Assembly: GCF_056712565.1 (NCBI RefSeq)
Contig: NZ_CM160072.1
Direction: 5' to 3' (one strand)
Length of the DNA stretch: 64,000 nucleotides
Shown here: piece by piece, positions 1 through 2,885 of the stretch
How positions within the stretch are numbered: the first letter of the stretch is position 1
How the letters are laid out: each line of letters starts with the position of its first letter
Translations under genes and position numbers: made by a program
The notes under the pieces: model-generated
The model's input: the letters and a program-made list of their open reading frames with translations, nothing else
What the model was told of the DNA's origin: nothing
The model's database searches: none

Positions 1-817
1 TCCAGAACGCCTGAAACGGATGAAAGAAGCATTCGACGCTGAGGCTGAGCAGACCATCACGCGCATGATTCGTAATGCACGCGCTGAAGCAGCCCATAAA
101 TTGCTGGGAATTACGCACGGTGAGATGACCAATGCTGTGACCACCGCTACGGGTATTGATACATATGCCCGTGATGATGCTGGCGAGTTAATGAAGAGCT
201 TCATGCTCTTCAAAACAACCCCATTTGCTGGATTTCGGCAACTTGTTAACAGAACACGGGATTTGGACACCGTTCCGGCCATTAAATTTCTGGCCTCATA
301 TATCGGGGGAACAACTCTTGCTGGTATGTTTGCGATCCAGATGAACAGTTTGTTAAATGGTAATGATCCGCTGGATATGACAAAACCAACCACATGGGTT
401 CAGGCTTTACTGAAAGGTGGTTCGTTCGGTATCTACGGTGATTTTATTTTCCAGGACCATACGCAATATGGCTCCAGCATCGGTGCCACTATGGGTGGCC
501 CTGTGTTGAGCTTTGCAGAGCAGTTAACAAAATTACTGATTACTAACCCACAGAAGGCTCTACAGGGTGAAGAAACATCATTCGGTGCCGATGCACTGAA
601 AACAGCCCGCATGATCACCCCATTCGCAAACCTGTGGTATGCGAAAGCGATAACCAATCACCTGATATTGCAACAACTTCAGGAGATGGCAAACCCTGGT
701 TACAATGATCGAGTAAGGGACCGCGCGCAACGGGAGTTCGACATAACGAGTTGGTGGGAACCGGGTGCTATTGCGCCACGTAGAGCACCGGATTTTGGAA
801 AGGCGGTAGGGGAATGA
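1..817 (+). CDS. Hypothetical protein, 5'-truncated at window edge (at least 272 aa visible); no family recognised; possible phage-structural or toxin-like C-terminal region
   Basis: Frame is open from position 2 to stop at 815-817; 265-aa ORF in track; stop overlaps next start (ATGA at 814-817); not part of K-12 dinD neighbourhood as I recall it. Confidence 0.5.
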   Translation, partial: PERLKRMKEAFDAEAEQTITRMIRNARAEAAHKLLGITHGEMTNAVTTATGIDTYARDDAGELMKSFMLFKTTPFAGFRQLVNRTRDLDTVPAIKFLASYIGGTTLAGMFAIQMNSLLNGNDPLDMTKPTTWVQALLKGGSFGIYGDFIFQDHTQYGSSIGATMGGPVLSFAEQLTKLLITNPQKALQGEETSFGADALKTARMITPFANLWYAKAITNHLILQQLQEMANPGYNDRVRDRAQREFDITSWWEPGAIAPRRAPDFGKAVGE

Positions 818-1155
818 AAAAGTTAAATACACCAACCAAAAGAGTTGGGGGGCTTCTGATTGTCATTGGAATTATATTTATACTTGCATCTATAATAGAA
901 ATATCAAGTAATGAGTTTGCTATTTCTGATAGTCCATATTATCGATCGCTAAATGCATATGATATTATTTTTATGTATTTAGAGCGAATTACAGATACTT
1001 TCATCATGACTCTAACATTTCAAACATGGAGTAGCCGTTTCAGTATATTAATGTTAGTAGGGTTTTGTTTATTTATTGTTGGTGTTCTTATTTCATATTT
1101 TTACGATGCTGGAATTGGCAGGGTTGTTAAGTGGATAAGAACGGGTAATTGGTGA
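814..1155 (+). CDS. Small AT-rich membrane protein (113 aa, 2-3 predicted hydrophobic helices), hypothetical; candidate immunity/accessory protein
   Basis: ORF in track; hydrophobic stretches GGLLIVIGIIFILASII and FSILMLVGFCLFIVGVLISYFY; visibly AT-rich compared with flanks; translationally coupled to upstream ORF. Confidence 0.5.
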   Translation: MKKLNTPTKRVGGLLIVIGIIFILASIIEISSNEFAISDSPYYRSLNAYDIIFMYLERITDTFIMTLTFQTWSSRFSILMLVGFCLFIVGVLISYFYDAGIGRVVKWIRTGNW

Positions 1156-1338
1156 TTATAAGCAAGCTATTGGTTTCATTGTTTATATCGTTGTCGGAAC
1201 TTTTTCAACTGACAGCAATCATAGCCGGGCTTGAATCGTGGTGGGGATTGCACTGGATAATTGCAGCCCCATTGCTTTCATCGTGAGCTATATTCCATTT
1301 GTTGGAGCGATTGTTGGTATGGTTGGCGCTATGGATGT

Positions 1339-1455
1339 ATGGTGTTGGGAGTGGTGGCAGGCTGGCCTTCTATTCTTTGGTGGATCATCTTTGCTATTGT
1401 CAGCGGTGGAATGTCATCATTTTTCGAATGGCTATCATTCAGAAAAAGAGCGTGA
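1339..1455 (+). CDS. Possible 38-aa hydrophobic peptide (MVLGVVAGWPSILWWIIFAIVSGGMSSFFEWLSFRKRA) with basic C-terminus; uncertain
   Basis: ATG at 1339 inside the 1261..1455 ORF; single predicted TM helix; immediately followed by terminator hairpin. Confidence 0.25.
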   Translation: MVLGVVAGWPSILWWIIFAIVSGGMSSFFEWLSFRKRA

Positions 1456-1463
1456 CATGTCAC

Positions 1464-1488
1464 AGGCCGCTTTCGCGGCCTTGTTTTT
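1464..1488 (+). terminator. Rho-independent terminator (stem AGGCCGC/GCGGCCT, loop TTTC, then TGTTTTT)
   Basis: Perfect 7-bp inverted repeat followed by T-run, read directly from sequence. Confidence 0.65.
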
Positions 1489-2129: not shown

Positions 2130-2885
2130 CTATCCACCCCTGCTTTCAGCAATGTGTTTGCGGGTTATTTTGGGGCGTTTGCGGGTTATTTGGGATGTTT
2201 TGCGGGTTATGCGATGCTTGAATAATGAACAGTGCATTTTGCAACATATTGATACTAAAGAACAAAAAATAGTTAGCACACTAAGATAACCCGGTAACCC
2301 GCATAACCCGCACTGTTTTGTATATATATACGAAAAATTGCATTCAGGAGGGGGGATCGAAATCCCTACAACCCATTGCTTATGGGACCGCCGCCTCGTC
2401 AAATTTTTACACCCGCGAAATAAAAAATACTTCACGCTGGTGGGCATGATGCTGATATGAGAGGCTTCCATAACGCCACCATTCGAAACTATGCAAATCT
2501 GCATAGAAAAGGGGATGCCTGATACAATACCCTCGCCCGATAAAATCACACCGATAAACTCATCTGCCACGAGTAGAAAGAGCGAACGAACCCGATACGC
2601 AGTAATGCTGGTCGGGTCCAGCTTTTTAAGGCGGCTGTAGATATCAGGCCATCCGTGATCATCCACCAGCGTAATTGCTGAACGCTTTAAAAAAACGTGT
2701 ACATAAGGGTGTACATAATCAAAAACCGCATTAGAAAGAAACCAGATACAATGCGGCATTGAAGCCAACACTCTACAAACAGATCCAGAACATTGAATAA
2801 CTCGTAACGCCAATTCTTCCTTTTCAGCCTTCACAAATGCCGCCCACTCAAACAGAGCGGCATTTTTCCTCCCCGCAACATTCAA
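2130..2885 (-). CDS. Long open reading frame (251 codons, alternative start) divergent from dinD; hypothetical; may be real only in its 5' ~160 codons (about 2400-2885), distal part runs through the repeat array
   Basis: Open frame of 251 codons is unlikely by chance; no plus-strand ORF competes in 2226-3010; no family recognised. Confidence 0.3.
   Translation of the reverse strand: MNVAGRKNAALFEWAAFVKAEKEELALRVIQCSGSVCRVLASMPHCIWFLSNAVFDYVHPYVHVFLKRSAITLVDDHGWPDIYSRLKKLDPTSITAYRVRSLFLLVADEFIGVILSGEGIVSGIPFSMQICIVSNGGVMEASHISIMPTSVKYFLFRGCKNLTRRRSHKQWVVGISIPPPECNFSYIYTKQCGLCGLPGYLSVLTIFCSLVSICCKMHCSLFKHRITRKTSQITRKRPKITRKHIAESRGG
2157..2313. repeat. Iteron-like repeat array: three direct TTTGCGGGTTAT copies at 2157, 2178, 2199 (21-bp phase) and three inverted copies (ATAACCCGG / TAACCCGC / ATAACCCGCA) at 2286-2312, followed by AT-rich TGTATATATATAC
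   Basis: Exact repeats read from sequence; function (origin iterons, integrase arm sites or operator array) not determined. Confidence 0.6.

Follow-up and report, generated by a model that had tools for sequence, protein, structure and literature searches.

Introduction

Salmonella phage epsilon15 (genus Uetakevirus) carries a gp15-gp16-gp17-gp18 operon, in which the stop codon of gp17 overlaps the start of a small membrane-protein gene by 4 nucleotides (nt) and a terminator follows directly. The products of gp15, gp16 and gp17 are annotated as head or virion structural proteins in the epsilon15 record, and epsilon15 is grouped with the podophages that eject internal core proteins as a DNA conduit (reviews PMC8954989, PMC12391199). 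Here, we describe an operon with the same gene order whose distal end occupies positions 1–1488 of a 64,000-nt stretch of DNA (contig NZ_CM160072.1, assembly GCF_056712565.1), which as a whole is referred to as the window. The start of the window is 100% identical to Escherichia coli ExPEC XM (NZ_CP025328.1), and the operon is carried by an island of 20.1 kb that encodes an integrase and is inserted in the 3' end of yicC.

A small membrane protein in a comparable position is known from phage P22. The gene for SieA, a small protein of the inner membrane, lies directly behind the last ejection gene and ahead of the genes for the antirepressor and the tailspike; SieA proteins fall into several sequence types that are unrelated to one another, and they target the ejection proteins (Leavitt et al., PMC10461980). 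In the locus described here, a gene for a protein of 113 amino acids (aa) is likewise located after the last ejection-protein gene. SieA differs in its length of 162–164 aa, its three predicted helices, its location on the opposite strand, and its own prophage-active promoter.

The island itself is best compared with the phage-inducible chromosomal islands (PICIs) of Gram-negative bacteria (EcCICFT073 type) and with P4-like satellites, with which it shares an integrase with a specific attachment (att) site, a primase, a cohesive-end (cos) site that in sequence mimics that of a helper phage, and the lack of capsid and tail genes; a candidate AlpA-like regulator is also present. The iterons of the island form two clusters reminiscent of P4 ori and crr. 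The Gram-negative PICIs and P4-like satellites are roughly 10–15 kb in size, in contrast to 20 kb for the island; their cos sites are of the lambda/80 or P2 type whereas that of the island is of the P27 type; and no DUF1441, Psu or Sid was seen in the island, which has instead three ejection/core genes in a 7.3-kb operon. Known satellites alter capsid size, packaging specificity or tail assembly. Some, such as SaPIbov5 with its Ccm protein and the capsid-forming PICIs, encode homologues of helper structural proteins. The island resembles the Ccm-type satellites in that a phage-derived virion protein is expected to co-assemble, and a sister island carries a protease–capsid fusion in the same position. 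The Ccm-type proteins, however, act on the capsid assembly of the packaging helper, whereas those of the island are ejection proteins and come from a different phage type than its cos site matches. No satellite carrying phage ejection or internal virion proteins was found in the literature searched, which was mostly without subscription journals. A satellite-type island is unusual in carrying a complete, selected and mosaic ejection operon that does not belong to the phage type mimicked by its cos site.

The identity and anatomy of the operon and the island are close to certain. The overall best explanation, to which we assign a probability of about 0.5, is that a satellite-borne ejection operon acts by loading its products into, and interfering with, Uetakevirus particles, and that the small protein adds an exclusion-like function.

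The Ejection-Protein Operon

Homology establishes that positions 1–1488 of the window are the distal end of a four-gene operon encoding homologues of Uetakevirus-type internal core or DNA-ejection proteins. The frame that is open from nt 2 to the TGA at 815–817 (271 codons and one partial) is 80% identical in nucleotide sequence to the 3' end of epsilon15 gene 17. The original prediction, made from the letters of this stretch alone, had placed this 5'-truncated frame, the ATGA overlap at 814–817 and the 113-aa frame correctly, and had recognised no family for the large frame. Extension in the 5' direction recovered a complete gene of 918 aa in the phage gene context gp15-gp16-gp17, starting 1,940 nt ahead of the window. 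Its product is a gp17-type virion protein, 88.9% identical to epsilon15 gp17 across 918 aa, and it matches PHROG 684 with E=5.5e-295 (residues 1–916 on profile positions 1–840 of 840). The large open reading frame (ORF) is an unremarkable addition to a phage protein family that is already known.

The gp17 homologue is the third of three abutting large genes of 843, 686 and 918 aa (Table 1), whose products are 80%, 67% and 89% identical in amino acid sequence to epsilon15 gp15, gp16 and gp17, respectively. The gp15 homologue contains a lytic transglycosylase domain at aa 249–403. Neither a solved structure nor a Pfam family was found for proteins of the gp16 or gp17 type; the gp17 homologue gave no Pfam domain even at E ≤ 10 and no match in PADLOC. 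Its single moderately hydrophobic segment (aa 741–759) falls inside the window fragment. In comparison with epsilon15, the operon lies in an island without gp12–gp14 and without capsid, portal, terminase, tailspike and lysis genes, the gp15 homologue is a mosaic with an N-terminal half of the type found in phage phiv142-3, its gp16 homologue is divergent in the middle third, and its small gene is unrelated to gp18. The gp16 homologue has 686 aa against 634 aa for epsilon15 gp16; the alignable parts are the N-terminal 245 and the C-terminal 207 aa, and aa 246–479 (L001 16736–17440, where L001 denotes coordinates of the source-genome locus that holds the island) have no counterpart in epsilon15 gp16.

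Tight coupling of a large frame with a small membrane-protein frame is also the layout of a toxin/immunity pair, as had been pointed out at first, with the large protein as a polymorphic toxin (Rhs, PAAR, VENN) or another toxin and the small membrane protein as its immunity partner. The layout is real and conserved, since it recurs in Uetakevirus phages and prophages, and it is all that speaks for such a pair. With 89% identity, the large ORF matches a known virion protein, searches of Pfam and PADLOC returned no toxin signatures for it, the order gp15-gp16-gp17 is conserved, and the family of the small gene occurs without the large gene; the probability of a toxin/immunity pair is accordingly close to nil. 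Nor is the block a stand-alone two-gene module, as it had been taken to be, for it makes up the last 7% of the 20-kb island.

The Slot Downstream of gp17

All Uetakeviruses examined have a gene for a small membrane protein behind gp17, with a terminator after it (slot genes in Table 1). In the epsilon15-like prophage of E. coli CFIAFB20190172, the 64-aa homologue of epsilon15 gp18 that overlaps the gp17 stop (L018 22754–22948) had escaped annotation, and the slot therefore appears to be occupied even at annotation gaps. In the window, the slot holds the 113-aa gene and, downstream of it, a decayed gene of the PHROG 3075 family: positions 1143–1525 are 92.5% identical to the Orf12 region of phiv142-3. 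The start codon of this pseudogene is lost (ATG to AAG at 1160–1162) in every island examined. In the XM lineage, the reading frame is further broken by a +1 indel at about 1198 and by -1 indels in the C-run 1267–1270 and in the G-run 1382–1383, while the PHROG 3075 copies of other islands have an in-frame TAG in place of the indels; the gene has been inactivated at least twice independently. The possible 38-aa single-helix peptide noticed earlier corresponds to an ORF that is indeed present at 1339–1455, but the ORF is the last frame piece of the pseudogene and the peptide is not real. The 95-aa coding sequence (CDS) annotated by PGAP at 1241–1528 on the plus strand was rejected as well, being the middle frame of the pseudogene together with a read-through of the terminator. 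The terminator had been recognised from the outset; it consists of a 7-bp stem (6 G-C) with a loop of 4 at 1464–1481 followed by TTGTTTTT, and it is conserved in phiV10, where it is annotated as such, in phiv142-3 and in other Uetakevirus phages.

Distribution and Selection

The island gp17 gene is found in 36 of 5,426 complete E. coli genomes, at an identity of at least 98.4%, and the block is strain-specific and accessory, as had been suspected. At least 17 of the 36 carriers have it at yicC-dinD. The 113-aa gene is present in 7 of the 36 island genomes; homology ends exactly at the gp17 stop codon in 28 and at nt 865 in one.

The gp15, gp16 and gp17 homologues are intact and of equal length in all six islands compared. 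The ratio of nonsynonymous to synonymous substitution rates (dN/dS) among island copies lies mostly at 0.03–0.3, with one gp17 pair at 0.9 that differs by only four substitutions; gp17 gives 0.11–0.22 among copies different enough to measure. The repeated decay of the adjacent 300-bp gene next to intact large genes is a local contrast that speaks for selection acting on the large genes in the island.

The same data bear on the view that the operon is functionless passenger DNA left by a recent recombination with a Uetakevirus. The DNA is of the phiv142-3 type on both flanks of the block, the 3' flank of the operon included, the gp16 and gp17 genes are 98–100% identical among island copies, and one of the 36 copies (H245) is interrupted by an insertion sequence (IS) element, all of which would fit such an origin. 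However, 7.3 kb have remained open in 6 of 6 copies compared while the 300-bp neighbour decayed at least twice in the same lineage, the dN/dS values are mostly low, and the block is kept across islands with different integrases and slot genes. Functionless passenger DNA is therefore a very unlikely account of the operon.

The Carrier Island and its cos Site

Table 1. Positions of the features of the ejection operon and its island, with the slot genes of related phages. Coordinates are those of the window unless marked L001 (source-genome locus holding the island).
Feature	Position	Strand	Basis or remarks
gp15, gp16 and gp17 homologues	L001 13470-16001, 16001-18061, 18061-20817		full-length matches to PHROG 992, 1145 and 684
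gp17 homologue, 3' end (aa 647-918)	1..817	+	homology to epsilon15 gp17
Gene for 113-aa two-helix inner-membrane protein	814..1155	+	start overlaps gp17 stop (ATGA 814-817)
PHROG 3075 pseudogene (three-helix membrane protein, phiv142-3 Orf12 type)	1160..1455	+	one profile matched in three frames
Intrinsic terminator closing the ejection operon	1464..1488	+	hairpin and T run
Iteron cluster	2157..2312	.	three direct TTTGCGGGTTAT at 21-nt spacing and three inverted across an AT-rich spacer
phiP27-type cos region (cohesive-end site and flanking 24-mer)	2347..2428	+	similarity to phiP27
Island right end	2697..2800	+	two GTGTACATA arm-type repeats (2697, 2709); attR core CAGATCCAGAACATTGAATAA 2780-2800
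attL core	L001 2655-2675		21-nt duplication of the yicC 3' end
Island genes, yicC to dinD			integrase; 72-aa helix-turn-helix; Rha, AntA/B, BRO-N; Icd-like, DUF4222
Island genes, continued			DUF927 primase, SSB, ProQ/FinO, frameshifted PerC gene, 68-aa gene, then operon
Slot gene of epsilon15			gp18, 64 aa; same ATGA-type overlap
Slot gene of phiV10			p21, 46 aa; annotated with two helices
Slot gene of phiv142-3			Orf12, PHROG 3075, 98 aa counted from an internal Met
Slot gene of E. coli epsilon15-like prophage (L018)			gp18-like ORF, unannotated

In K-12, yicC lies immediately upstream of dinD, as the original prediction had stated, and the 220 bp between them represent the empty site. The attR core of the island is a copy of the last 21 nt of yicC, the yicC reading frame is kept, and the GTGTACATA arm repeats are present near both island ends. 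The DUF927 protein matches the DNA primase family PHROG 1139 with E=2e-174, and the 72-aa helix-turn-helix protein gives a weak match (E=3e-7) to PHROG 66 (excisionase/regulator). Iterons of the sequence GCGGGTTAT form two clusters, one at 2157–2312 in the window and one at L001 11261–11383 directly after the DUF927 primase gene. The gene content of the island includes no capsid, portal, terminase, tail or lysis genes, and an Rfam search across the whole island found nothing. Uetakevirus gp12–gp14 and tailspike genes are also missing from the island, whereas two true prophages (L004 and L018) have all of these genes, including those for terminase, portal, capsid and lysis.

At tRNA-Gly, the island core is found together with another integrase, and the iteron/cos region is found in islands of many more genomes at about 79–88% identity, with 488 genomes matching part of 1530–2800. 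The position taken here by the ejection genes is variable among relatives: the sister island of K-15KW01 (L016, cspD-clpS site) has a ClpP-protease/major-capsid fusion and DUF1441 there, that of STEC308 (L017, tRNA-Pro) has DUF1441 and TerS, and other relatives with a primase 89% identical (IMG/VR contigs L045 and L049) have HNH/TerS/TerL-like genes of their own. By its genes and sites, the island has the anatomy of a PICI/P4-like phage satellite in which the variable "hijack" module is a podophage ejection operon. A Uetakevirus prophage remnant was considered and rejected, because the flanking 13 kb are a satellite-type backbone and the core also occurs with another integrase.

Positions 2347–2428 of the window are 86% identical to the annotated cos region of phiP27; in the cohesive-end stretch, there is one deletion and one substitution (CGCCGCCTC versus CGCCCGCCCC). 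The 24-mer GTCAAATTTTTACACCCGCGAAAT beside cos is found without mismatch in each of the six islands examined; in contigs of P27-like phages, it is located between HNH and TerS, even in those whose terminases are only 42–60% identical to phiP27. The cos sequence match points to P27-like phages as the packaging helper. Uetakeviruses are without an HNH gene and their terminase families (TerS/TerL) are unrelated; a Uetakevirus sharing the island cos was rejected on these grounds and because phiv142-3 is without the 24-mer. The matches of the cos 24-mer in IMG/VR are not taken as evidence of packaging, because they are mostly prophage predictions from isolate genomes, and the attP junction of an excised island was not found in viral contigs.

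Several further observations were made along the island. The 251-aa RefSeq CDS on the reverse strand (2130–2885) belongs to no family and is probably spurious, for it spans the iterons, cos and attR and runs into host DNA. A stretch of 70 nt at 2558–2628 is 83% identical to part of the P1/P7 rlfB/rapB replication gene, in opposite orientation, and may be what is left of another gene close to attR. In each of the four islands examined (L001 12809–13034, and also L009, L010 and L054), the gene for a PerC-family regulator carries a frameshift annotation; it is followed by a terminator-like hairpin (about L001 13040–13066) and an AT-rich region before the 68-aa gene, which opens the ejection operon. 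Immediately downstream of the tRNA-Gly island lies another small element, with a major capsid gene and a second tyrosine recombinase (YZLc1-3, L009 24205–35871).

Relation to Uetakevirus Phages

The gp15 homologue is a mosaic in which the first ~1,500 nt (L001 13470–15000, located 6.5 to 5.0 kb ahead of the window) are mostly 93–99% identical to phiv142-3 gp15. The remainder of the gene is epsilon15-type, as are the gp16 and gp17 homologues, with nucleotide identities of 75–81% to epsilon15 and of 50–60% to phiv142-3. The N-terminal blocks of gp15 differ between islands, the replaced blocks lying within the first 450–1200 nt. Uetakevirus-like DNA was not found elsewhere in the island beyond the operon block and its flanks. 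Strain GF43 serves as a worked example, since a co-resident Uetakevirus was sought in ExPEC XM and not located. GF43 carries the island together with a phiv142-3-type prophage; the two gp15 genes are 93–97% identical over the first 600 nt, the island and prophage gp16 and gp17 proteins are 30% identical, and the slot of the prophage holds an intact PHROG 3075 gene.

Co-occurrence was counted with chimeric queries so that island genomes ranked first. A Uetakevirus TerL is present elsewhere in 25 of the 36 island genomes, against 499 of 5,390 others (odds ratio 22, p 5e-18, uncorrected for clonality), and the P27-family TerS/TerL in 15 of 36 against about 650 of 5,390 (odds ratio 5.2, p 8e-6, likewise uncorrected). 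Taken together, the cargo, the recombination tracts and the co-occurrence suggest that the island frequently lives alongside Uetakeviruses.

Such an association could also mean that the island is a satellite of the Uetakeviruses themselves, whose own matched ejectosome lets its particles enter cells that exclude the helper, for example helper lysogens, while the membrane gene excludes rival islands. In favour of this stand the odds ratio of 22, the recombination tracts with phiv142-3-type gp15, and the three genes kept intact as a matched set; in P22, matched foreign ejection sets are functional (PMC10461980). The 20.1 kb of the island are about half of the 39.3-kb Uetakevirus genome, and the decay of the helper-type slot gene (PHROG 3075) in every island examined fits selection against helper exclusion. 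Set against this are the sole recognisable packaging signal, which is a P27-type cos, the lack of an HNH gene and the unrelated TerS/TerL families of Uetakeviruses, the lack of other Uetakevirus-like island DNA, and the missing Uetakevirus TerL in 11 of the 36 island genomes. A Uetakevirus satellite is for these reasons an unlikely identity for the island, and a P27-like helper is preferred.

The Small Membrane Protein

The hydropathy profile of the 113-aa protein predicts two strongly hydrophobic helices, at aa 12–30 and 76–94, with basic N- and C-terminal tails; two or three had been predicted. At position 814, the GC content falls from about 0.50 upstream to 0.28–0.34. The GC content at third codon positions (GC3) also drops, from 0.47–0.50 upstream to 0.23 in the 113-aa gene, and the AT-richness is therefore not only an amino-acid effect. 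The sharp change in composition that had been described is thereby confirmed. The break of homology at the gp17 stop in 28 of 36 islands, together with the drop in GC3, also bears out the earlier suggestion that the membrane ORF was acquired separately. Conservation and purifying selection are evident for the gene: against a 53%-identical homologue, the nonsynonymous proportion of differences (pN) is 0.25 and the synonymous proportion (pS) is 0.73.

A word-indexed search for relatives returned only three, among them the 53%-identical homologue, which sits after gp17 in a complete Uetakevirus-like prophage, and a 93-aa allele in sister islands. A profile search over 1.84 billion representatives yielded 91 members at E ≤ 1e-3, which have the motifs LNTPxKRxG and YDxxIGRxxxWIxxG in common; the 113-aa protein has no family match in Pfam, PHROG, NCBIfam or PADLOC. 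The genomic context was sampled for seven members. Four follow a gp17-type gene in podophage prophages, with gp17 proteins of both the 918–922-aa and the 824-aa types; one belongs to an element that encodes an integrase and an inovirus-type Rep, one is the sole non-Rep gene called on ~3-kb Rep3 contigs, and one has an uninformative chromosomal context. The ~3-kb contigs (L028 and L029) are from metagenomes and may be plasmids, with Rep3 (and RepL), and a 95-aa family member is the only other gene called on them. The protein thus belongs to an unnamed, widespread family of small membrane proteins common to podophages, putative plasmids and an inovirus-like element, which is unusual.

No sigma-70-like promoter was found upstream of the 113-aa gene, and since the gene also overlaps the gp17 stop, it looks late. 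Late co-expression would suit a protein that assists the ejection proteins or takes part in lysis, for instance a holin-like protein or a chaperone in the membrane that prevents gp17 from inserting in the producer cell; some small membrane protein occupies the slot of every Uetakevirus examined, and the predicted two-helix, N-in/C-in topology resembles that of class II holins. Such a late partner is nevertheless distinctly unlikely, because the family occurs with both gp17 types and also without gp17, on putative ~3-kb plasmids and in the inovirus-like element, because unrelated slot proteins stand behind near-identical gp17 C-termini, and because Uetakeviruses already have a separate holin cassette. 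The related idea that the slot protein co-varies with the type of gp17 was dropped for the first of these reasons. The presence on putative minimal plasmids and on an inovirus-like element indicates that the 113-aa protein acts on its own, and we infer that it is the product of an autonomous, swappable accessory gene. The label of a phage moron or superinfection-exclusion cassette, first proposed for the whole block, plausibly fits the small gene alone. An exclusion-like role for the small protein is possible, and our preference for it is tentative.

Proposed Mechanism and Points Against it

In the mechanism that we favour, a P27-like phage would act as helper and package the island by way of its cos site. 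By virtue of the phage-matched N-terminal half of the gp15 homologue, the island ejection proteins would load into the capsids of a co-replicating Uetakevirus, where the island set would be mixed with the resident proteins of the phage or take their place, although the two sets differ greatly (gp16 and gp17 being at 30% amino acid identity). P22 virions with one mismatched ejection protein assemble and are non-infectious (PMC10461980), and mixing should for this reason lower the infectivity of Uetakeviruses. Mixed ejection sets would change, and most likely impair, DNA delivery by Uetakevirus particles, an interference at the level of assembly that would benefit the island, its host and its cos-helper. 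The 113-aa protein would most likely act at the inner membrane against incoming DNA, in the manner of superinfection exclusion. Judged from the sequence, the chances that island ejection proteins do enter Uetakevirus particles are about even, and interference as the net effect is a more tentative proposal that falls short of even odds.

Several points weigh against this mechanism. The incorporation of the island proteins into capsids under the direction of the gp15 N-terminal half is an assumption. A strong positive association with Uetakevirus prophages would be expected of a helper and less obviously of a phage that is interfered with, and the co-occurrence counts ignore clonal kinship, with avian and extra-intestinal E. 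coli lineages over-represented. If the operon were no more than a "poison", 7.3 kb of fully conserved genes would be unnecessary. As to the small protein, no sequence similarity to SieA types A–C was found (BLASTP E = 0.48), and its gene, unlike sieA, is co-directional with gp17 and overlaps its stop; with no promoter found upstream, it looks like a late gene. The content of the slot also varies, a different 104-aa gene being present in both islands examined among the 28 in which homology ends at the gp17 stop.

A related and more far-reaching reading turns the loading of particles to the advantage of the island. In it, the satellite would equip particles of a second phage type, the Uetakevirus, with the complete, matched ejection set of the island by means of a recombining, phage-matched gp15 N-terminal adaptor, while relying on P27-like packaging; the outcome would be either sabotage of DNA delivery by that competitor or passage of island-carrying particles past the exclusion barriers of lysogens, and the small gene would be a new and widespread single-gene exclusion determinant common to podophages, small plasmids and inovirus-like elements. 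We regard this reading as less likely than not.

Implications

All of these genes are called "hypothetical" by PGAP, and the annotation of the region includes two CDSs that are apparently artefacts. The small membrane-protein family, with 91 cluster representatives, no database family and several mobile-element hosts, is a candidate single-gene exclusion factor. If it is true that island proteins enter Uetakevirus particles, the island would be a natural system in which the capsid-loading parts of podophage ejection proteins can be separated from the parts that form the trans-envelope conduit, and it would reveal a new level of competition, the step of DNA entry.

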